The notes below the pieces were generated by a model that was given only the letters and a program-made list of their open reading frames with translations, was not told the origin of the DNA and did not search any database. From a virus (Duplodnaviria; Heunggongvirae; Uroviricota; Caudoviricetes), in IMG/VR virus record IMGVR_UViG_3300029590_000173, positions 1 through 8,429 of that record: a stretch of DNA of 8,429 nt, one strand, 5' to 3'. A program made the position numbers and the translations under genes. Below, piece after piece: positions 1-8,429 of the stretch; positions within the stretch are counted from its first letter, which is position 1; every line of letters starts with the position of its first letter.

Positions 1-17
1 AAGTTGGCAGCATCACC
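1..17 (-). mobile_element. Terminal 17 bp of a second IS1 copy (left inverted repeat, reverse-complemented); the body of that copy lies upstream of the window
   Basis: Bases 1-17 (AAGTTGGCAGCATCACC) are the exact reverse complement of bases 2473-2489 (GGTGATGCTGCCAACTT), the left end of the complete IS1 in this window. Only 17 bp are visible, so full versus solo end cannot be decided. Confidence 0.7.
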
Positions 18-288
18 CGAAATCACTTCATCAAGCACGTGTGTTGATGAGTACTTCAGGATCGGGTCGACGATCAAAACTGACCGGGTAATAGAACTGG
101 ATGGGGTAACTTACCCATATGTTACAATTGACGTTTCTTCTAAGTCGCATCCGTTCTATACAGGCAAACTGAGAACTGTTGCTTCAGAAGGTAATGTTGC
201 ACGCTTTACCCAGCGTTTTGGGCGTTTTGGGCGTTTTGGGCGTTTTGGGCGTTTTGGGCGTTTTGTTGATGCGAAAAAAGGCGGCTGA
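18..288 (+). CDS. rpmE2: 50S ribosomal protein L31 type B (RpmE2/YkgM-like), 3' fragment with a C-terminal (GRF)n expansion; 5' end abuts the IS1 end
   Basis: The translation ...[62 protein letters not shown]...KKGG matches my recollection of the non-zinc L31 paralog YkgM over about 65 residues. The stop is TGA at 286-288. The frame stays open back through the IS1 end to base 1, so the true start is not in the window. No rpmJ2/ykgO-like gene follows. Confidence 0.75.
214..265 (+). repeat. Perfect tandem repeat of the 9-bp unit CGTTTTGGG, 5 full copies plus a 7-bp partial copy, in frame within the L31B coding sequence
   Basis: Counted directly: units at 214-222, 223-231, 232-240, 241-249 and 250-258, then CGTTTTG at 259-265. 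The repeat encodes RFG/GRF repeats. Confidence 0.95.
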
Positions 289-589
289 TTTCGCCGCAAA
301 GGTGCGTTTGACAATTTTAAAACGGACCGGACAGAGAGAGCCTGCACCTGAATATACTGAGGTAGCCCGTCCCTCCGGGGCGTGCAGATGATCCCGTCAC
401 CAGAAGATTGCGGACCTCTCTGAAAACCAGTACATTACGCGCGGGTGCCTTTCGGCTGACGGCTGGAAGGATTACCTGAAGGCCGGATGTGGAAAGGCCC
501 CGGAAAACATCTCTGTTTAGCCGAGGCCCTAATCTACATACCTTTAGCAAGTAGAAGGTTAGCGCCTCTTTGAAAAAGGAGCAAGCGCT

Positions 590-730
590 ATGCCGCAAAA
601 AACGATCATCGTGAGCATTTTATGCTTAACCATGTTGTTGACCGTCTGGATGATACATCGTTCACCATGTGAATTCAGACTTAACATCATGTGGTCAGAA
701 TTTGCGGCGTTCTTGCAGTGTAAACCGTAA
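590..730 (+). CDS. Small hydrophobic protein (46 aa), Hok/Gef-family-like type I toxin candidate
   Basis: The ORF ATG 590 to TAA 728-730 was not in the supplied track because it is below the length cut-off. Translation: MPQKTIIVSILCLTMLLTVWMIHRSPCEFRLNIMWSEFAAFLQCKP. AGGAG at 577-581 sits 8 nt before the ATG. It has one N-terminal transmembrane segment followed by R-S-P-C-E-F-R and S-E-F-A-A-F, which resemble the Hok motifs R-K-x-L-C-E-I-R and E-V-A-A-F as I recall them. A GC-rich hairpin and an intrinsic terminator follow. Confidence 0.5.
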   Translation: MPQKTIIVSILCLTMLLTVWMIHRSPCEFRLNIMWSEFAAFLQCKP

Positions 731-824
731 GAAACCGCAGCGGGGGTGAAAGCCCCCGCTATCCGGTTGCCGAAGGTTCGGTCGAAAGCCGCACCCGTGC
801 ATGCAAGTGACAAAGAAAAAACAA

Positions 825-858
825 AGCCCGCAGCGTAAAAACTGCGGGCTTTTTTATT
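825..858 (+). terminator. Rho-independent terminator downstream of the hok-like ORF
   Basis: Stem AGCCCGCAG (825-833), loop CGTAAAAA, stem CTGCGGGCT (842-850), followed by TTTTT-ATT. Confidence 0.65.
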
Positions 859-896
859 CACATACCGAAGGTGTGGTAACTGCCTGGGTTCAGACC

Positions 897-921
897 AAAA
901 AAAGCCCCATAAAATGGGGCT
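897..921 (-). terminator. Rho-independent terminator for leftward (minus-strand) transcription, convergent with the plus-strand terminator
   Basis: On the minus strand: AGCCCCA, loop TTTTA, TGGGGCT, then TTTTTTT (the plus strand shows an A-run at 897-903). It lies about 300 nt downstream of the minus-strand operon end at 1217. Confidence 0.55.
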
Positions 922-1067
922 GAAGATTCTGTAAGGAATTTCACAGCAATGAGATTCTAGTCTCTTCCAATGATATATGAGTCTTCAGCCTGAATCAATG
1001 GGGCATGACTGTGAATCCACCGACGATCAAAACTTGCACAATGCCTGAAGTTGAGTTAGAAAAGTAC

Positions 1068-1128
1068 CGGGCGCGATATCCGGTTTATTTTTTGTTGCTG
1101 TGTTTTGCCTCGTGCCGGATATCGCGTC
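1068..1128. repeat. Imperfect 15-bp inverted repeat (GGGCGCGATATCCGG ... CCGGATATCGCGTCC) separated by a 31-nt T-rich spacer
   Basis: Arms at 1068-1082 and 1114-1128 are reverse complements at 14 of 15 positions. Each arm contains GATATC. Function unknown; possible large hairpin or protein-binding site at the GC/AT transition. Confidence 0.5.
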
Positions 1129-1216
1129 CACCGTCTTTCTGATGATTCTTATGAAATCGTACTTTATTGATTTACTGCCATCCTGGTTTGTCTTTTTATG
1201 TTCATTATTGCGACAG

Positions 1217-1612
1217 TCATTTCCTGTTTCTGGTGATGTTTTGATAAAAGTGAAAGAATAAAACGATCATTGCAGAAGGTATTGCTAAAACCATACATAT
1301 CATTATATAAACAAGATGAAAATGATATATACCATAAGACCAGAAAAAAGGTTTTTTCCAGAATGATATGGATGTGTATTTTAGTGTAATTGTTTTTGTC
1401 AGGTATATTGAACAAGGAAGAGCCAGGCCACTGAGTATCAGAAATAAGTCAACTTTTATCGATGCTTCTGTTGGTGTGTCATATATAAGATGCAATATGG
1501 ATATTATAATGGGGCACATTCCCCACAGGATATTTTTGAAATAGAATTTCCGGTTCATATGTTTATGCTCTTTGGTTTTATCCCGGGAATTGGCGCTTTG
1601 TTTTTTATTCAT
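1217..1612 (-). CDS. Hypothetical multi-pass membrane protein (131 aa, about 3 predicted transmembrane helices), low-GC, second gene of a two-gene operon
   Basis: Track ORF. The start overlaps the stop of the upstream ORF by 8 nt (ATG at 1612-1610 versus stop at 1607-1605). Hydrophobic stretches include ILWGMCPIIISILHLIY, VDLFLILSGLALPCSIYL and YGIYHFHLVYIMICMVLAIPSAMIVLFF. An alternative start at the internal Met (codon 18) is possible. No family recognised. Confidence 0.55.
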   Translation of the reverse strand: MNKKQSANSRDKTKEHKHMNRKFYFKNILWGMCPIIISILHLIYDTPTEASIKVDLFLILSGLALPCSIYLTKTITLKYTSISFWKKPFFWSYGIYHFHLVYIMICMVLAIPSAMIVLFFHFYQNITRNRK

Positions 1613-2276
1613 GAACGTTTTCGTTGTTTAATAACCATGGGGTATTATGATTATCCTTTATTTTTGATATGTAATTGTCAATAGTGGATTTCGTTTCATT
1701 ATTGTGGTTATAGTAATCATGAAGAGTGCAAAACACATCATCTTTTATTGTGGCGATTAATGGGGCTTGTGTGAGGGTAAAATATAAAGAACGATTACTT
1801 AGTGTCCTGAAATAAATTTTTTCGCCAATGACCAGATCGGTGTTCATTATATTGTAGCCTATTTCAAATATATTGTTTGATGGCATGTGTAATACATATG
1901 TGGGGTATTTGTTGTGTTTTTTCATTAAATAATAAATAAAATCAGATACAGGCATCTGTTTTAGTTTTTTTTGCATCTTCCTTATGTGTTGTGACATTAA
2001 TATCATTTTCGAGAGAATGCATAAGAGACTAAACAAGAGATTAAATACTATGTTCAGTACTATCAGAGTAACAAACAGGCCAATGCTCCTTAGCGCTGAA
2101 AATATATTGTCATTGTAAATATACTGGAATGTATATCCGGCTGATAAAAATGCCAATATATATAACACTATGTCTGTTTTATTTCGCTTTTTTATTTTGT
2201 AGGTTATTGCTGATTTTAAGAATAAGATGGCAATAAGAGCAGTGATAACCCAGAAAAATATAACGGAAACTTCCAT
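1605..2276 (-). CDS. Hypothetical membrane protein (223 aa): three N-terminal transmembrane helices plus a ~130-aa Asn/Lys/Tyr-rich soluble C-terminal domain; low-GC; first gene of the operon
   Basis: Track ORF. ATG at 2276-2274 with a weak AAGG upstream. Transmembrane segments around residues 3-20, 36-54 and 65-88. GC content is about 28%, against roughly 50% in the flanking DNA. No family recognised. Confidence 0.6.
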   Translation of the reverse strand: MEVSVIFFWVITALIAILFLKSAITYKIKKRNKTDIVLYILAFLSAGYTFQYIYNDNIFSALRSIGLFVTLIVLNIVFNLLFSLLCILSKMILMSQHIRKMQKKLKQMPVSDFIYYLMKKHNKYPTYVLHMPSNNIFEIGYNIMNTDLVIGEKIYFRTLSNRSLYFTLTQAPLIATIKDDVFCTLHDYYNHNNETKSTIDNYISKIKDNHNTPWLLNNENVHE

Positions 2277-2326
2277 AATTATACCTTTATCGTGTTTTCA
2301 GGGAGGTAATTTATCATTGTGCTGAT

Positions 2327-2346
2327 ATGCATGTAAATACATGCAT
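2327..2346. promoter_or_regulatory. Perfect 20-bp palindrome ATGCATGTA-AA-TACATGCAT, 51-70 bp upstream of the 223-aa membrane-protein gene; candidate operator in its promoter region
   Basis: The 9-bp arms are exact reverse complements with a 2-bp spacer. It lies in the 196-bp AT-rich gap between the ORF start (2276) and the IS1 left end (2473). Confidence 0.45.
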
Positions 2347-2527
2347 TATCTGTTTCTTATATTCTTTTTATGAAGTTACTGATTAATTTATATTAAAACA
2401 ACACATTCATAATGAAATCAACATGTTCATATGGTTGACGGCAGATTTCTCTTTTTGTTAACCTGCATCTGCGGTGATGCTGCCAACTTACTGATTTAGT
2501 GTATGATGGTGTTTTTGAGGTGCTCCA

Positions 2528-2803
2528 GTGGCTTCTGTTTCTATCAGCTGTCCCTCCTGTTCAGCTACTGACGGGGTGGTGCGTAACGGCAAAAGCACCG
2601 CCGGACATCAGCGCTATCTCTGCTCTCACTGCCGTAAAACATGGCAACTGCAGTTCACTTACACCGCTTCTCAACCCGGTACGCACCAGAAAATCATTGA
2701 TATGGCCATGAATGGCGTTGGATGCCGGGCAACCGCCCGCATTATGGGCGTTGGCCTCAACACGATTTTCCGCCATTTAAAAAACTCAGGCCGCAGTCGG
2801 TAA
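2528..2803 (+). CDS. insA: IS1 InsA protein (transposition inhibitor and N-terminal part of the InsAB' transposase)
   Basis: The 91-aa translation [43 protein letters not shown]... is the canonical InsA with its zinc-finger Cys motifs. Confidence 0.95.
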
Positions 2804-3225
2804 CCTCGCGCATACAGCCGGGCAGTGACGTCATCGTCTGCGCGGAAATGGACGAACAGTGGGGATACGTCGGGGCTAAATCGCGCCAGCGCTGGCTGTT
2901 TTACGCGTATGACAGGCTCCGGAAGACGGTTGTTGCGCACGTATTCGGTGAACGCACTATGGCGACGCTGGGGCGTCTTATGAGCCTGCTGTCACCCTTT
3001 GACGTGGTGATATGGATGACGGATGGCTGGCCGCTGTATGAATCCCGCCTGAAGGGAAAGCTGCACGTAATCAGCAAGCGATATACGCAGCGAATTGAGC
3101 GGCATAACCTGAATCTGAGGCAGCACCTGGCACGGCTGGGACGGAAGTCGCTGTCGTTCTCAAAATCGGTGGAGCTGCATGACAAAGTCATCGGGCATTA
3201 TCTGAACATAAAACACTATCAATAA
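2722..3225 (+). CDS. insB: IS1 InsB reading frame (expressed as the InsAB' transposase by a -1 frameshift at the A6C site)
   Basis: The track ORF translation ...[44 protein letters not shown]... is canonical IS1 InsB. The frameshift site lies at 2779-2785. Confidence 0.9.
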
Positions 3226-3240
3226 GTTGGAGTCATTACC

Positions 3241-3586
3241 TGAAGCGTTAATGCATGATGCAACAGAAGCGTATTGCCAGGACATCCCTGCTCCACTGAA
3301 ACGCCTTCTTCCTGACTATAAACGGATGGAAGAAAAAATAGACGCCGTAATCCGTGAGAAATACGGGTTACCTCCTGTTATGAGCACGCCAGTGAAATAT
3401 GCCGATCTCATTATGCTGGCAACCGAACGTCGCGATCTCGGGCTTGATGATGGCTCTTTCTGGCCTGTACTGGAAGGTATCCCGGCGACAGAGATGTTCA
3501 AAGTTATTCCACTGTCACCAGGCCATGCCTACGGGATGTTTATGGAACGTTTTAACGAGTTATCGGAGTTACGCAAATGCGCATGA
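3241..3586 (+). pseudogene. 3' remnant of an HD-domain phosphohydrolase-like prophage gene, decapitated by the IS1 insertion
   Basis: The reading frame runs uninterrupted from inside the IS1 right end, and the apparent start at 3227 is IS1 sequence. The remaining translation begins PEALMHDATEAYCQDIPAPLKRLLPDY..., which carries an HD-type metal-binding motif (H-D-x-x-E-x-x-x-x-D-I-P). The N-terminal half is missing. Confidence 0.5.
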
Positions 3587-3939
3587 ATGTTTTCGAAATG
3601 GAAGGGTTTCTTCGCGGGAAATGTGTACCACGAGATCTGAAAGTGAATGAAACAAATGCTGAGTACCTGGTACGTAAATTCGATGCGCTTGAAGCTAAAT
3701 GTGCGGCACTGGAAAACAAAATAATACCAGTGTCAGCTGAACTGCCGCCAGCAAATGAAAGTGTTCTGTTATTTGATGCTAACGGAGAAGGCTGGCTAAT
3801 TGGCTGGCGTTCTCTCTGGTACACCTGGGGACAAAAAGAAACCGGAGAATGGCTGTGGACATTTCAGGTCGGGGACCTTGAAAACGTCAATATCACTCAC
3901 TGGGCAGTAATGCCGAAAGCACCGAAGAATAAAAAATGA
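3577..3939 (+). CDS. Prophage protein with a C-terminal Trp-rich domain resembling DUF551
   Basis: Track ORF with GGAG 8 nt upstream; it overlaps the previous stop. The C-terminus GEGWLIGWRSLWYTWGQKETGEWLWTFQ...ITHWAVMPKAPK fits the Trp-rich phage domain I recall as DUF551 (ending THWMPLP-like). Confidence 0.5.
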   Translation: MRMNVFEMEGFLRGKCVPRDLKVNETNAEYLVRKFDALEAKCAALENKIIPVSAELPPANESVLLFDANGEGWLIGWRSLWYTWGQKETGEWLWTFQVGDLENVNITHWAVMPKAPKNKK

Positions 3940-4139
3940 GCGTGATAAAAACTCATACAGGAATTGTTATCACCCGAGACGGTCCGCAGGTAAAAAAACT
4001 GCACCAGACAAAGCGGATGTGGGTCGTCGGAAAAAACGAGTTTTACCACAAAGAAACCGGACGCCGCCACTTTGCAGAAAATACTCGCCGCCGACTGCTG
4101 ATCGATACCATCAAGCCTATCGAGGTGAAGCATGTTTAA
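3936..4139 (+). CDS. Hypothetical prophage protein (67 aa)
   Basis: Track ORF. Its ATG overlaps the upstream stop (ATGA), typical of translationally coupled phage operons. No family recognised. Confidence 0.4.
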   Translation: MSVIKTHTGIVITRDGPQVKKLHQTKRMWVVGKNEFYHKETGRRHFAENTRRRLLIDTIKPIEVKHV

Positions 4140-4371
4140 ACAGAACGAAAAATCTATCGCTCAAATTGCTGAGTATATCCCGCGTGCGTGCCGGGATATG
4201 CAGTTGCAGGAAGCCAAAGCACGCCTGGAGAAAAAAATTGCGCTCTATATCGATGACGGCTGTGATGCCGCCGTTCTTAACGCGGCGTTCGCGCCAGCTC
4301 TTAACAGTCATACGCGAAAGTCTTTTTTTTCGTGCATCGCAGCGCAGATCCGTAAAGGAGGCAACCAGTGA
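4132..4371 (+). CDS. Hypothetical prophage protein (79 aa)
   Basis: Track ORF. Its start overlaps the upstream stop (ATGTTTAA) and its stop overlaps the next gene's GTG start. No family recognised. Confidence 0.4.
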   Translation: MFKQNEKSIAQIAEYIPRACRDMQLQEAKARLEKKIALYIDDGCDAAVLNAAFAPALNSHTRKSFFSCIAAQIRKGGNQ

Positions 4372-4967
4372 GCAACATTAACTATCAGGTACTGCGTGAA
4401 AAGGCAGAGAAAGCAACTAAAGGAAGCTACATCGTAGGGCATACATCTGTTAACCAACACGGCAATTTAACAGGAGTTTTTGTTTGTCAAAAATGGAAAG
4501 GAGAACCCGGTGGCGTAATTGCAGAATGTCACGTTAACTGCCTGGTTGAAACAGATGCTCAGGCTTATGCAAACGCTGAATTCATAGCAGAGGCTAACCC
4601 GGCTACCGTGCTGGCACTGCTGGATGAACAGGAAAGAAACCAGCAATACATCAAACGCCGCGACCAGGAGAACGAGGATATTGCGCTAACGGTAGGGAAG
4701 CTGCGCGTTGAGCTTGAGGAGACAAAATCAAAACTCAACGAGCAGCGCGAGTATTACGAGGGAGTTATCTCTGATGGGTGCAAGCGTATTGCTGAACTGG
4801 AAGCGCGGGAAGTTCAATTACCGACTCGCTACGACCTTCGATATGGACACCCGATAAATGCAGATGAGCGACAAGTCATGATACCTAAAGAAAATGGCAG
4901 TTGGCTTTACCTGATTGACCTAGAACACGCATTACGCGTCGCTGACATTCGCATCAAAGGAGAGTGA
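4368..4967 (+). CDS. Ead/Ea22-like prophage accessory protein (199 aa)
   Basis: GTG start with a strong AAGGAGG 6 nt upstream. The N-terminus MSNINYQVLREKAEKATKG... and the central coiled-coil region match my recollection of lambdoid Ead/Ea22-like proteins encoded between int/xis and the recombination genes. Confidence 0.55.
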   Translation: MSNINYQVLREKAEKATKGSYIVGHTSVNQHGNLTGVFVCQKWKGEPGGVIAECHVNCLVETDAQAYANAEFIAEANPATVLALLDEQERNQQYIKRRDQENEDIALTVGKLRVELEETKSKLNEQREYYEGVISDGCKRIAELEAREVQLPTRYDLRYGHPINADERQVMIPKENGSWLYLIDLEHALRVADIRIKGE

Positions 4968-4968
4968 T

Positions 4969-5484
4969 ATGGCGTTAACACACCACGAACTCTGTCAGAT
5001 TGCGTACAAGTTCCTTAAGCGCAACGGGTTCAAGGTTTGCTTTCATGACCGCTTTGTTGCTGTAACCAGTACCGGAGAACAGCCAGATGCTATGGGATTC
5101 AGAAATTCAGCATCATGCCTGATAGAGGCGAAGTGTTCTCGTGCTGACTTGTTGGCAGATAGAAAAAAGCGTTTCCGTAAAAATCCCTCACTTGGCATGG
5201 GCGACTGGCGATTCTTTATTAGTGAGCCGGAAATTATTTCAGTTGAGGATTTACCTCCCGGCTGGGGATTACTTCACGTTGTTAACGGAAGAGTACGGAA
5301 AGTACATGGATGGCCCAGGGGTAATTGCTGTTGGGGTAATCCTGACGATAAGCCATTTACTGGGAATAAGCAGGTTGAATGCGATTACATGTTATCTGCA
5401 TTAAGGCGCATGGAGTTGAGAGGGCACCTTAATGAAATATATGACGGTGTGATTGTTAATAAGAAAGAAGGAAACGCGGCATGA
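4969..5484 (+). CDS. Hypothetical prophage protein (171 aa); possible PD-(D/E)xK nuclease fold
   Basis: AGGAG 6 nt upstream; starts 1 nt after the Ea22-like stop. The sequence contains ...GEQPDAMGF...CLIEAKCSRADL..., which is compatible with a PD-x(n)-E-x-K catalytic motif. This is a motif-level inference only. Confidence 0.35.
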   Translation: MALTHHELCQIAYKFLKRNGFKVCFHDRFVAVTSTGEQPDAMGFRNSASCLIEAKCSRADLLADRKKRFRKNPSLGMGDWRFFISEPEIISVEDLPPGWGLLHVVNGRVRKVHGWPRGNCCWGNPDDKPFTGNKQVECDYMLSALRRMELRGHLNEIYDGVIVNKKEGNAA

Positions 5485-6239
5485 TCACTATTACCAAAGG
5501 GCGACTGCTGACAATCAAGCAGTGGCGCGAAACATACGGACCGGGTAGCAACGTTGTACTGCCAGCAGAAGAAGCGGAAGAACTGGCACGAATTGCTCTG
5601 GTATCGCTGGAAGCAGAGCCGGTGGCAAAGATTATAGCTCATTACCCATTAGGAGTTGACGTAGGCAAACAAAAGTTCGTACAGGCCATTGGAGAGCTTC
5701 CTGACTTTGGCGGATATCTATTTGCCGCCCCGCCAGCGCCGGTAGTGCCGGAAGAAGCAACTCCGGAAAACGTAGAAATGCTCTCTGGCTATGTTTCCAC
5801 GTACAAATTAACCGATAGCGAGCGCGATATTGCTGCCGAAATATGGAACGCCTGCCGCACCGCCATGCTTCAGTCCGGAAACTTTCGGGAAAGCAAGAAT
5901 TCGTCAACCAATAATTTTCGGGAAATCCCGGAAGCGTCAACCAGCTCTCCGGTAACTCCGGCTCTTCTGCCTGGTGGTTTCACCATTGAGGAGGCGAAGG
6001 AATTACATGAAGACCTGGTACGCAGCCACATAAGCAAGGCCTTAAGTGGCGAAAAGATGAAAAAGAAAGATCGCGATGCTGATTTGCGCTGGATTCATGG
6101 CGTTATAGTTCAGGCAGCGTGGTTTGTAAAAGCATCACTGGAGCAGAATGCACTATCGGGCAACTCTCCGGTAACTCCGGATGGTTGGATAAGCTGTAGT
6201 GAGCGAATGCCGGACGACAGGCAGGAGGTGAATCAATGA
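5481..6239 (+). CDS. Hypothetical prophage protein (252 aa) with internal short repeats and a C-terminus that looks like the start of a DUF551-type domain
   Basis: ATG overlaps the upstream stop (ATGA) with GAAGGA upstream. It contains exact 17-bp direct repeats at 5945-5961 and 6164-6180 (encoding SPVTP) and ends ...SPVTPDGWISCSERMPDD before the stop at 6237-6239. Confidence 0.5.
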   Translation: MITITKGRLLTIKQWRETYGPGSNVVLPAEEAEELARIALVSLEAEPVAKIIAHYPLGVDVGKQKFVQAIGELPDFGGYLFAAPPAPVVPEEATPENVEMLSGYVSTYKLTDSERDIAAEIWNACRTAMLQSGNFRESKNSSTNNFREIPEASTSSPVTPALLPGGFTIEEAKELHEDLVRSHISKALSGEKMKKKDRDADLRWIHGVIVQAAWFVKASLEQNALSGNSPVTPDGWISCSERMPDDRQEVNQ

Positions 6240-6319
6240 GCTGGCCTGATGCAATCGTAACTCTGGGGGTGGTATTCGCAGCAGCGTTTGTTGTGTTCTC
6301 GATTTGTCGATGGGGATAA
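6236..6319 (+). CDS. Small single-transmembrane peptide (27 aa, MSWPDAIVTLGVVFAAAFVVFSICRWG); candidate host-targeting small membrane peptide
   Basis: Not in the track because it is short. AGGAGG at 6222-6227 sits 8 nt before ATG 6236. The ATG overlaps the upstream stop (ATGA), and the stop TAA at 6317-6319 lies 4 nt before the next ATG (6324). Confidence 0.4.
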   Translation: MSWPDAIVTLGVVFAAAFVVFSICRWG

Positions 6320-6323
6320 CCAC

Positions 6324-6566
6324 ATGTTCGCTTTGATTCAACGCGGTCAGATATACACGGACAGAGCCGGATACCCCGTGGTGATTACTCGCATCACTGA
6401 GCACTCAGTGTTCTTTCGACGGGTGGACGGACGATCCGGGCGGGTACGCATTGGTGAGTTAAACTGCCTGTTCGAACATATTGACCACCAGGAGTACCGC
6501 AAAATTCTCGCGGACACTGAGCAGGAAAAGCACCTGAAAAAATTACGAGCCATAAAAAGGAAGTAA
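6324..6566 (+). CDS. Hypothetical prophage protein (81 aa from ATG 6324; the track's TTG start at 6288 is less likely)
   Basis: Track ORF 6288..6566. The ATG at 6324 follows the small-peptide stop by 4 nt. Translation: MFALIQRGQIYTDRAGYPVVITRITEHSVFFRRVDGRSGRVRIGELNCLFEHIDHQEYRK... No family assigned with confidence. Confidence 0.45.
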   Translation: MFALIQRGQIYTDRAGYPVVITRITEHSVFFRRVDGRSGRVRIGELNCLFEHIDHQEYRKILADTEQEKHLKKLRAIKRK

Positions 6567-6569
6567 AGA

Positions 6570-6704
6570 ATGAATAAAGCATTTGAACGATGGGTCCACC
6601 AGCGTTACGGCAATCACTATGACCTGACGCGAGATGTTGATGGCTTCTACTGTCGTGAAGTTGTGAAGCGAATGTTTGAAATGTGGTGCCACTGCCGTGG
6701 ATGA
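6570..6704 (+). CDS. Small Cys/His-containing protein (44 aa, MNKAFERWVHQRYGNHYDLTRDVDGFYCREVVKRMFEMWCHCRG)
   Basis: Not in the track because it is short. AAGGAAG lies about 7 nt upstream, and the ATG is 4 nt after the previous stop. C-x(13)-C-H-C could be a metal-binding knuckle. Weak call. Confidence 0.3.
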   Translation: MNKAFERWVHQRYGNHYDLTRDVDGFYCREVVKRMFEMWCHCRG

Positions 6705-6722
6705 AAGTTTTATGAGGTTGGC

Positions 6723-6977
6723 ATGCAGACAATCATCTATCAGATAACCCCCAGCAAATGGTGTACGGAGAGAGTCCTTATTGCATCAACAGGGCTAAAG
6801 CCCGGCACCATCGAGCGGGCCAGAAGAAAGTCATGGATGCAGGGAAAAGAATACCGCCATTACGCTGTAGAAGGTGATCCTGGGCATTACAGTGAATGCC
6901 TGTACAACATCGAAGAAATTATGCGATGGATCGAAAACCAGAAACAACCAGGTGCCAAAAATGCAAGTTCCGGTTAA
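6723..6977 (+). CDS. xis: Excisionase-like (Xis) protein, 84 aa
   Basis: It sits immediately upstream of int and is co-oriented with it, the canonical xis position. The N-terminus MQTIIYQITPSKWCTERV... resembles the putative-excisionase family of enterobacterial prophages as I recall it. Confidence 0.5.
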   Translation: MQTIIYQITPSKWCTERVLIASTGLKPGTIERARRKSWMQGKEYRHYAVEGDPGHYSECLYNIEEIMRWIENQKQPGAKNASSG

Positions 6978-7010
6978 CCTGTTAATGCTCCTGGACGTCT
7001 GGGAGGTTTA

Positions 7011-8315
7011 ATGAGTAACGTATCATACCCGACAGGCGTTGAAAACCATGGAGGATCACTCCGTATATGGTTTCACTATAATGGCAAACGTGTCAGAGAA
7101 AACCTCGGTGTTCCTGACACCGCCAAAAACCGGAAGATCGCAGGTGAACTTCGCACTTCCGTTTGTTTTGCAATCAGAATGGGGAGTTTCGACTACGCTA
7201 CACAGTTCCCTAATTCCCCTAACCTGAAACACTTTGGTCTGGGAAAAAGAGAGATAACCGTTAAGGCACTTTCGGAAAAATGGTTGGACCTTAAGAAAAT
7301 TGAGATTTGTGCGAATGCACTTAATCGTTACCAGTCAGTAATTAAAAACATGTTGCCTATGTTGGGTGAGAAAAAACTGGTTTCATCCATAACAAAAGAG
7401 GATTTACTTTTCGCAAGGAGAGATTTGTTGACCGGTTACCAAAAGCTTTCTAATGGAAAGATTTCTTCCATAAAAGGGCGCTCAGTGGTCACAGTAAACT
7501 ACTATATGACAACCATAGCTGGAATGTTTCAATTTGCAACAGATAATGGTTATACCTCAGGAAACCCATTTAACGGTCTGGCCCCCTTAAAAAAGTCCAA
7601 GGTAAAACCAGATCCTCTCACCCGTGACGAATTTATTCGTTTTATTGAGGCTTGCCGTCATCAACAAACAAAAAACCTGTGGATTCTCGCTGTATACACG
7701 GGTATTCGTCACGGGGAGCTGGTATCGCTGGCATGGGAAGATATAGATCTTAAAGCAAGGACTATAACCATCCGTAGGAATTATACAAAACTTGGCGAAT
7801 TCACTCCACCAAAAACCGATGCTGGCACCGGAAGGACAATTCATCTGGTTCAACCAGCTATTGATGCTCTTAAAAGTCAGGCGGAAATGACCATGCTTGG
7901 AAAGCAACATTCTGTAGAGGTAAAGCAGAGGGAATATGGGAGAAGNNNNNNNNNNNNNNNNNNNNNNNNNNNNNNNNNCACTTTTGTTTTTAGTCCTCAG
8001 GTAATAAAACAGCGGCAGTTTTCCGGACCGCACTATAAGGTTGACTCCATCAGGGAGTCATGGACAAGTATCTTAAAACGCGCAGGTCTGAGACACAGAA
8101 AATCGTACCAATCCAGGCATACTTATGCATGCTGGTCACTTGCCGCTGGAGCTAATCCTAGTTTTATCGCAAGCCAGATGGGCCACACAAACGCACAAAT
8201 GGTATTCAATGTTTACGGAGCATGGATGAAAGACAACAATCACGAACAGATAGAACTCCTTAACAAAAGACTATCTGAAAGTGTCCCATGTATGCCCCAT
8301 AAGAAAGCTGGGTAA
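7011..8315 (+). CDS. int: Phage integrase, tyrosine site-specific recombinase (lambda Int family); the reading frame spans a 33-N gap
   Basis: GGGAGG Shine-Dalgarno before ATG 7011. The C-terminal catalytic region carries ...LAVYTGIRHGELVSLAWEDIDL... (Arg box) and ...HTYACWSLAAGANPSFIASQMGHTNAQMVFNVYGAWM... (H-x-x-R ... Y motifs). Ns at 7946-7978 fall inside the gene. Confidence 0.9.
   Translation: MSNVSYPTGVENHGGSLRIWFHYNGKRVRENLGVPDTAKNRKIAGELRTSVCFAIRMGSFDYATQFPNSPNLKHFGLGKREITVKALSEKWLDLKKIEICANALNRYQSVIKNMLPMLGEKKLVSSITKEDLLFARRDLLTGYQKLSNGKISSIKGRSVVTVNYYMTTIAGMFQFATDNGYTSGNPFNGLAPLKKSKVKPDPLTRDEFIRFIEACRHQQTKNLWILAVYTGIRHGELVSLAWEDIDLKARTITIRRNYTKLGEFTPPKTDAGTGRTIHLVQPAIDALKSQAEMTMLGKQHSVEVKQREYGRXXXXXXXXXXXXTFVFSPQVIKQRQFSGPHYKVDSIRESWTSILKRAGLRHRKSYQSRHTYACWSLAAGANPSFIASQMGHTNAQMVFNVYGAWMKDNNHEQIELLNKRLSESVPCMPHKKAG
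7946..7978. other. Run of 33 N (assembly gap or masked bases) inside the integrase gene
   Basis: Seen directly. Because 33 is a multiple of 3 the frame appears preserved, but the true length and content are unknown. Confidence 0.99.
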
Positions 8316-8360
8316 AATAAAAACTTGCAAAATCAATTAGTTTACCCTTAATCCCTGTCA
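8316..8360. other. Prophage-chromosome junction (attL-type) region between the integrase stop and the resumption of mlrA-like sequence
   Basis: Position immediately 3' of int, and the point where the downstream frame begins to read as MlrA (about 8354). The exact core cannot be defined without the other junction. Confidence 0.35.
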
Positions 8361-8429
8361 CGTTACGCGCGTGGCAGAGGCGTTACGGATTGCTGAAACC
8401 GCAACGGACAGACGGCGGTCATCGGCTGT
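8354..8429 (+). pseudogene. mlrA: Fragment of the MerR-family curli regulator gene mlrA (yehV), helix-turn-helix region; its 5' end is replaced by prophage sequence and it runs off the window
   Basis: The in-frame translation [25 protein letters not shown] matches the MlrA N-terminal HTH region as I remember it ([42 protein letters not shown]...). The upstream in-frame codons ([11 protein letters not shown]) do not match and contain no start codon back to the stop at 8318-8320. Confidence 0.6.

Follow-up and report, generated by a model that had tools for sequence, protein, structure and literature searches.

The closest described relatives of the phage DNA considered here are the lambdoid prophages VT1-Sakai (Sp15), YYZ-2008, JLK-2012, BP-4795 and PhiR5_1, and those of the VT1-Sakai/YYZ-2008 group are inserted in the 5′ part of the Escherichia coli gene mlrA (yehV). 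A prophage in mlrA limits curli expression and biofilm formation in other E. coli (PMC3874044), and truncated phages in yehV have been reported (PMC8309913). We analysed positions 1 to 8,429 of IMG/VR virus record IMGVR_UViG_3300029590_000173, a stretch of 8,429 nucleotides referred to throughout as the window. It contains, in mlrA, the integrase-proximal arm (3241–8373) of a lambdoid prophage of the VT1-Sakai/YYZ-2008/PhiR5_1 type, which is very common in E. coli. The arm is severed inside an accessory gene, yfdR, by a copy of the insertion sequence IS1, and this IS1 joins it to an IS1-bracketed fragment of an integrative and conjugative element (ICE).

Proteins of the window were compared with Pfam, PHROG, NCBIfam and PADLOC profiles, and the DNA was scanned against Rfam at its gathering threshold. 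Nucleotide comparisons covered 5,426 complete E. coli genomes and, for plasmids, the best 5,000 records of PLSDB; exact-pattern junction scans covered three collections (genome_contigs, metagenome_contigs and viral_contigs), and the protein look-up set held about 15 billion proteins. The window is built of four blocks, an IS1 tip (1–17), ICE DNA (18–2472), an IS1 (2473–3240) and the phage arm with mlrA (3241–8429), and its main features are the following (ORF, open reading frame; aa, amino acids; IRL and IRR, left and right inverted repeats of IS1).

1–17, minus strand: IRL tip of a second IS1 copy, inverted with respect to the complete copy; the remainder lies outside the window
18–2472, plus strand: internal ICE fragment of 2,455 bp between the two IS1 ends
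2473–3240, plus strand: complete IS1 of 768 bp, read directly in the sequence, with InsA and DDE_Tnp_IS1 domains
2528–2803, plus strand: insA, with InsA domains at 3e-21 and 1.7e-30 (families Zn_ribbon_InsA and HTH_Tnp_IS1)
2722–3225, plus strand: insB′ frame, DDE_Tnp_IS1 (2.3e-78)
about 2777–2785, plus strand: A6C frameshift site TTAAAAAAC, read in the sequence
3241–3586, plus strand: 3′ two-thirds of yfdR (5′-deoxynucleotidase), PHROG 6402, deoxyribonucleoside 5′ monophosphate phosphatase (4.6e-67)
6723–6977, plus strand: excisionase of the xisR type, Pfam DUF1233 (2e-29) and phrog_539 excisionase (1.6e-37)
7011–8315, plus strand: tyrosine integrase, reading as 434 aa (homologues 428 aa), Arm-DNA-bind_2 (1.7e-24) and Phage_integrase
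8353–8373, plus strand: attachment (att) core, attR copy, ccctgtcacgttacgcgcgtg, 21 bp inside the 5′ part of mlrA
8353–8429, plus strand: mlrA (yehV) coding sequence past the crossover, continuing beyond the window; loci L001 and L003 have mlrA annotated at this place

A prophage arm in mlrA

From 3241 to the end of the window the DNA aligns at 97–99% identity with mlrA-integrated prophages of many complete E. coli genomes. Among phage records the closest are PhiR5_1 (98.3%), VT1-Sakai (94.7%), YYZ-2008 and BP-4795. Each locus inspected has mlrA, yohO and yehW after int and a full lambdoid prophage upstream. The integration into mlrA/yehV that the original prediction had drawn from the literature is borne out by the alignments and by the position of mlrA after int in all homologous loci; a plasmid origin of the phage block was rejected on the latter ground. 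The arm itself is a mosaic, each segment of which is matched at 98% or more by some locus among the homologous loci.

The integration module is recognisable in full order. An integrase with arm-binding and catalytic domains adjoins the att core and is preceded by the DUF1233 excisionase. Bases 8353–8373 are identical to the 21-bp repeat of YYZ-2008 annotated as a ‘direct repeat due to prophage insertion’, and the annotation of JLK-2012, whose sequence itself was not read, also places a 21-bp attL 38 nt past int. Downstream of the core, 25 residues in frame 2 give what we take to be MlrA sequence. No second att core occurs within the window. The integrase is near-identical to that of L001 outside a run of 33 N at 7946–7978, which covers 11–12 codons and stands where homologues have 15–16 nt (TACTGTGCATAAATG in the metagenome scaffold L014, discussed below). 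The run keeps the frame and is not a one-to-one mask, and could be a scaffold gap or an 18-nt insertion; because of it the intactness of int is not verifiable, and the sequence may derive from a scaffold.

Eleven plus-strand ORFs extend from 3241 to 8315 and end in the excisionase and integrase genes. Their Pfam and PHROG matches agree with the earlier description of the block as a lambdoid int/xis accessory arm transcribed toward int, and the left boundary it had drawn at 3240 holds to the nucleotide, IS1 occupying exactly 2473–3240 and the arm starting at 3241. The right end it gave, 8360, falls within the att core. Its first gene, described as DUF551-like, is a 5′-truncated yfdR; the resemblance to DUF551 belongs to the second ORF, whose score falls short of the Pfam cut-off. 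Intact yfdR measures 537 bp in L001 and L003. The window joins it 191 nt in, so that the first 191 nt are missing.

The window holds no attL, immunity, replication, Q, lysis or morphogenesis genes and no stx. The absence of immunity, replication, lysis and structural genes had been foreseen from the sequence, together with the view that only this arm survives; the latter is not established, and prophage loss beyond the left IS1 is not decidable from the window, whose view stops 17 nt into that IS1. The likeness of the arm to Shiga-toxin (Stx1/Stx2) phages is uninformative on cargo because stx-free prophages carry the same arm.

The IS1 joint and the ICE fragment

Both terminal inverted repeats of the complete IS1 (GGTGATGCTGCCAACTT... 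and GGTAATGACTCCAACTT...) were read at 2473–3240, and the element is 98–99% identical to IS1A annotated on plasmids. The 9-bp target duplication is absent around it, the flanks reading tgcatctgc on the left and tgaagcgtt on the right. As these 9-mers differ, a simple insertion does not account for the joint. Each flank of IS1 continues its own parent undisturbed, tgcatctgc|attaactg in the intact ICE and gctttTGAAGCGTTaatg in intact yfdR; two untouched parental sequences joined solely via IS1 fit a deletion or a recombination joint.

To the left, bases 1–17 (AAGTTGGCAGCATCACC) are the reverse complement of GGTGATGCTGCCAACTT at 2473–2489, matching at 17/17 positions, and all ICE homologues begin to match exactly at base 18. 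Taken together, these observations place the ICE fragment between two inverted IS1 ends, with both IRLs facing inward. The fragment is 99.8% identical in 13 complete E. coli genomes. In strain G6/7 it sits between ICE genes of the TraG_N, TIGR03756 and TIGR03757 families and an integrase-domain gene, and the context is the same in other genomes. Judged by this homology, the upstream DNA is the interior of an ICE and not the chromosomal neighbour of mlrA. The window contains no conjugation genes, ICE integrase or ICE att, which were seen only in the homologous loci. We rejected an assignment of the left flank to the ykgM region of the chromosome, since an ICE copy matches at 99.8% and the complete-genome matches are ICE or island copies. 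The original prediction had correctly placed non-phage DNA to the left of the arm and had missed that it is an ICE fragment with a second IS1 end at 1–17.

The arrangement is rare. In no complete genome of the 5,426 does a single place account for more than 60% of the window. When 1–3400 was searched in the same genomes, a single place per genome reached 72% at most, and none included an ICE|IS1 joint; an apparent ICE module with IS1 in H41 (ETEC1738) was set aside as irrelevant, its IS1 lying at another position in a 92%-identical island. The IS1–ICE–IS1 unit was not found among the best 5,000 PLSDB records. In the junction scans, the right-hand ICE|IS1 joint (2472|2473) gave 0 matches in genome_contigs and metagenome_contigs, and the exact IS1|yfdR3′ pattern gave 0 matches in genome_contigs and viral_contigs.

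The sole independent sighting of the IS1|tgaagcgtt joint is a gut-metagenome scaffold of the European Nucleotide Archive (L014), which starts with the last 53 nt of IS1 and is 99.6% identical to the window over 3188–4720 and 100% identical over 7979–8429. At read scale, then, the IS1|yfdR joint is genuine, and one other strain at least has it too. Over window 4720–6167, in mid-arm, the cassettes of L014 are different; this difference reflects either recombination after the IS1 event or a scaffold that mixes strains.

The reciprocal joint, in which the 5′ part of yfdR with the 9-bp duplication meets either IS1 end, gave 0 matches in metagenome_contigs and viral_contigs. Ten predicted read-through products (five intact yfdR alleles, each continued by LVMTPTY or LVMLPTY) were absent from the set of about 15 billion proteins, and a homology search with a yfdR–IS1 chimera returned no reciprocal-joint product. 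That search did recover P0002, which serves as a positive control for read-through products. P0002, from a 568-nt NCBI contig, is a YfdR N-terminus reading into the IRR end of an IS1 that lies about 60 nt downstream of the site in the window; IS1 has hit yfdR more than once.

Other truncated forms of YfdR were also met. Products of 111 aa and 86 aa mostly mark frameshifted yfdR alleles. P0004 and P0008, which break at the same yfdR codons, were considered as reciprocal joints and rejected, being unrelated internal deletions at microhomology. The IS1 target in yfdR (ttttgaagcgttaa, window 3241–3250) is also the left breakpoint of two unrelated deletions (L056, 4195–4215; L057, 4195–4210). One such deletion joins the next ORF at a TGAAAGTGTT microhomology (window 3757–3766), and the other joins the 3′ end of an integrase gene, apparently beside a tRNA gene. 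On these alignments breakage seems to recur at the IS1 target in yfdR.

Origin of the joint

We tentatively favour an IS1-mediated adjacent deletion that left a true stump, the attR-side arm in mlrA, and rate its chance at somewhat below even. A single IS1 at a novel joint without a target duplication is the product expected of IS1 adjacent deletion. As proposed, the IS1-bracketed 2.45-kb ICE fragment would first have arrived at an upstream position, within the prophage or next to it. The IS1 copy at 2473–3240 would then have undergone intramolecular transposition from its IRR end into yfdR, and the accompanying deletion would have taken everything between IS1 and yfdR nucleotide 192, leaving one IS1 at the joint and no target duplication. 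We infer both this order of events and the upstream prophage loss. The missing target duplication and the absence of the reciprocal yfdR5′|IS1 junction from the collections searched lean, indirectly, toward truncation: the reciprocal joint is required by three other models (a mis-paired simple insertion, a composite transposon and IS1–IS1 recombination), and the failure to find it moderately favours deletion.

Judging from lambda biology, an arm cut in this way would have lost the early leftward promoter (pL) and the immunity region. It would have no attL partner in cis if the upstream prophage was deleted as proposed, and IS1, which is transcriptionally polar, would leave xis and int essentially orphaned. 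A promoter scan of the window returned 17 sites against 14.3 in shuffles, a result that neither supports nor excludes an internal int promoter. With no pL, immunity region or attL partner in the window, a polar IS1 upstream and no excess of promoter-like sites, the arm is probably silent and unable to excise, and mlrA would stay disrupted. mlrA is interrupted here; if the stump cannot excise, the curli defect is fixed in this strain.

Several observations weigh against a deletion. The window ends 17 nt into the left IS1, with nothing upstream in view, and a deletion presupposes that some earlier event had brought the ICE fragment into cis upstream, the ICE lying 0.9–3 Mb from mlrA in related genomes. 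The negative searches for the reciprocal joint are indirect, as the source assembly was not found in the searched collections and its own yfdR allele may differ from those used. The 33 N point to an assembly that was scaffolded. Finally, two inverted IS1 ends around a short passenger are the signature of a composite transposon, which explains the missing inner duplication equally well. A direct IS1 deletion from a normally integrated ICE was rejected, since a loss over 0.9–3 Mb would not be viable.

Nor does the layout of related chromosomes single out a mechanism. In G6/7, G8 and G1/2 a distance of 3.0 Mb separates the ICE fragment from the arm, with both on one strand, and direct joining would be a deletion-type or cointegrate-type joint. 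In G6/7 the ICE is at 4.77 Mb on the minus strand, and the mlrA arm is at 1.77–1.83 Mb on the minus strand in both G6/7 and SW070917. SW070917 carries its ICE at 0.91 Mb on the plus strand and its arm at 1.83 Mb on the opposite strand, an arrangement in which an inversion would yield the joint of the window. As the site and orientation of the ICE vary among close relatives, geometry picks no mechanism.

The alternative that survives best, though we consider it unlikely, is that a Tn1681-like unit, an inverted IS1, 2,455 bp of ICE DNA and the complete IS1, moved into yfdR and that the prophage continues past the left IS1. Two IS1 insertions in the ICE would have been followed by transposition of the block, and only a non-essential accessory gene would be interrupted. 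Composites with inverted IS1 copies are known, Tn1681 and the aerobactin region of pColV-K30 among them. Both ends of the ICE fragment are inverted IS1 IRL tips, exactly where ICE homology stops, and a composite accounts for inner joints that share no duplication, calls for no chromosomal rearrangement and accords with the recurrent hits of IS1 in yfdR (P0002). What was read is one complete IS1 and a 17-nt inverted IRL tip, the rest of the second copy lying outside the window. Left of the upstream IS1, a composite predicts ...gaatttgcttttgaagcgtt (...caggaatttgcttttgaagcgtt), then yfdQ, yfdP and the immunity/repressor region. The predicted outer-left joint ...TGAAGCGTT|GGTAATGACTCC was absent from metagenome_contigs and viral_contigs, however, the product ...EALVMTPTY was absent from the protein set, and the unit was found at no other locus, neither ICE|IS1 joint occurring in the 5,426 genomes or the best 5,000 plasmid records. 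It is doubtful that the unit is an active, undescribed composite transposon carrying hok and a conserved two-gene module from an ICE into a prophage early gene; if true, an addiction module, or an accessory one of no known function, would be passing from one class of mobile element to another.

Recombination between an IS1 in yfdR and an IS1 at ICE position 2472/2473, which would leave the prophage split and not lost, with its other half at the reciprocal joint, seems to us improbable. It could take the form of a chromosomal inversion where the ICE is in opposite orientation, as in SW070917, or of integration of an excised ICE circle where the orientation is the same, as in G6/7. It would leave no target duplication, and it is compatible with the different sites and orientations of the ICE relative to mlrA in close relatives; these lineages show about 30 places that match the window, almost all of them presumably IS1 copies. 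Yet four events are needed, and the second IS1 close by would be there by coincidence; searches for the reciprocal yfdR5′|IS1 joint in both orientations found nothing, and neither precursor insertion occurs in any of the 5,426 complete genomes. By arithmetic from the coordinates, an inversion of at least 0.9 Mb would also leave a replichore unbalanced or reoriented. To the left of the window, recombination or an ICE cointegrate predicts ICE DNA (ATGATATCAATCAGTAA, with TraG_N upstream), and the ICE sequence attaactgtcgcttcgg preceded by IS1 elsewhere in the genome would help to separate the split, intact and deleted cases.

We give a similarly low chance to an assembly chimera, in which a collapsed 768-bp IS1 repeat had its wrong exits paired and the genome holds a simple IS1 in yfdR and separate IS1 copies in the ICE. 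The 33-N run in a unique gene, its length unlike the 15–16 nt homologous stretch, suggests a scaffolded draft; L014 stops inside IS1, as short-read assemblies normally do; and the ICE–phage joint occurs in 0/5,426 complete genomes. On the other side, the IS1 sequence is complete and free of N between clean flanks, the predicted joint ...TGAAGCGTT|GGTGATGCTGCC and product ...EALVMLPTY were not found, and the N run is in frame and could represent masking, not a gap. Any other origin we regard as very improbable.

Whichever history applies, an int/xis arm beside an IS1 should not be read by prophage callers as a lost prophage without a view across the insertion sequence. Here a second IS1 end lies 2.5 kb upstream, and the prophage may simply continue. 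The finding matters little beyond the annotation of this strain.

Gene content and comparison with known elements

The remaining genes of the arm, all on the plus strand, follow yfdR in this order.

3577–3939, plus strand: 120-aa phage protein, phrog_583 (1.9e-81), with a weak DUF551 match (21 bits against a cut-off of 22)
3936–4139, plus strand: 67-aa phage ORF, phrog_1226 (2e-42)
4132–4371, plus strand: 79-aa phage ORF, phrog_1344 (1.2e-52)
4368–4967, plus strand: Ead/Ea22-like protein, 199 aa, Pfam Ead_Ea22 (1.1e-40)
4969–5484, plus strand: 171-aa phage protein with no assigned function, phrog_9263 (1e-120); no Pfam, NCBIfam or PADLOC match
5481–6239, plus strand: 252-aa phage protein, its C-terminal 16 residues matching the beginning of DUF551; WP_000628775.1, ‘phage protein’, in L001 and L003
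6324–6566, plus strand: DUF4222 protein, 80 aa, Pfam DUF4222 (1.3e-13), with the ATG of annotated homologues (243 bp); the ORF opens at 6288
6570–6704, plus strand: 44-aa conserved phage ORF, phrog_3871 (1.6e-30)

From yfdR onward, successive ORF boundaries show overlaps of 10, 4, 8 and 4 nt, a 1-nt gap and an overlap of 4 nt, and short gaps precede the DUF4222 gene, the 44-aa ORF, xis and int. The Pfam and PHROG family matches of the arm are far above chance, and every small ORF has a PHROG family. In the collection, 929 blocks list exactly this Ead/Ea22-like protein. Within the 252-aa ORF lies an imperfect 31-nt direct repeat with a spacing of 33 nt (5880–5943); this internal repeat and the terminal DUF551 match suggest a recombinant gene. 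The same yfdR–Ea22 arm occurs with other integration modules (L018, L019, L020 and L024; L005–L012). One alternative module has a 437-aa integrase beside a DUF72 gene. Elsewhere the arm terminates in a PyocinActivator-family gene, beyond which lie genes for a Fur-family regulator, a MatE-family transporter, LexA and PlsB. The yfdR–Ea22 arm is a shuffled set of cassettes that several prophage families have in common.

The ICE fragment carries four ORFs.

18–288, plus strand: type-B ribosomal protein L31 paralogue, Pfam Ribosomal_L31 (1.1e-15) and NCBIfam type B L31 (1.6e-23)
590–730, plus strand: Hok/Gef-family toxin gene, 46 aa, Pfam HOK_GEF (1.9e-06, above cut-off); Hok/Gef is annotated in homologues
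1217–1612, minus strand: 131-aa ORF, overlapping the next, in DNA of about 30% GC
1605–2276, minus strand: 223-aa ORF, in the same low-GC DNA

IS1 has removed the first 17 nt of the L31 paralogue, including a start codon that is intact in L002. Near its 3′ end (204–274) a 9-bp tandem repeat, GCGTTTTGG, in 5–6 copies gives (GRF)n at the C-terminus of the protein, and the G6/7 alignment implies 27 bp, or three repeat units, fewer there, so that the copy number is variable. About 90 nt 3′ of the hok-like gene, within a 490-nt gap preceding the minus-strand ORFs, is a strong bidirectional terminator-like hairpin (823–852) with an 11–12 bp stem and T-runs on both sides. The Rfam scan found no Sok or other RNA family in the window. 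The 131-aa and 223-aa products of this two-gene operon are probably membrane proteins by their sequences, and Pfam, NCBIfam and PADLOC returned nothing for either. Exactly this 223-aa protein occurs in 1,211 blocks of the collection, with an ICE context beside hok in the 9 places shown. Apart from hok, the arm and the ICE fragment had no match to known defence, resistance or toxin families in Pfam, PHROG, PADLOC or NCBIfam.

Set beside known elements, the left block shares the stretch from the L31 paralogue through hok to the 223-aa ORF at 99.8% with ICEs that encode TIGR03756/TIGR03757 proteins (for example in G6/7), of which the window has an internal fragment only. Related modules, about 92% identical, occur in an E. 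coli genomic island beside the urease operon (strain ETEC1738) and in large plasmid-collection records, one of them from O157:H7 EDL933. The complete IS1 has the 768 bp, canonical termini and insA/insB′ with A6C site of IS1A/IS1R. With Tn1681-type composites the locus shares a short passenger (2,455 bp) between inverted IS1 ends; unlike theirs, this passenger has no known selectable or virulence gene and consists of a decapitated L31 paralogue, hok and two membrane-like ORFs. An IS1 adjacent deletion matches the joint itself, but the DNA on the IRL side is here a foreign ICE ending in another IS1, for which one simple deletion is insufficient.

The phage block has the integrase, DUF1233 excisionase and DUF4222/Ea22 arm of VT1-Sakai (Sp15), YYZ-2008, JLK-2012, BP-4795 and PhiR5_1, at 94.7–98.3% nucleotide identity, and the same 21-bp att core and site in mlrA as the VT1-Sakai/YYZ-2008 group. 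It differs from these prophages in having only the last ~5.1 kb of the arm, beginning within yfdR at IS1, and in its middle cassettes, which form another mosaic (a 199-aa Ea22 variant and the 171-aa and 252-aa ORFs). Every component is already known, from IS1 and the VT1-Sakai/YYZ-2008 integration module with its att to the Ea22/DUF551/DUF4222 cassettes and the ICE module, and the joint that unites them is a rearrangement of an ordinary kind, specific to the strain.

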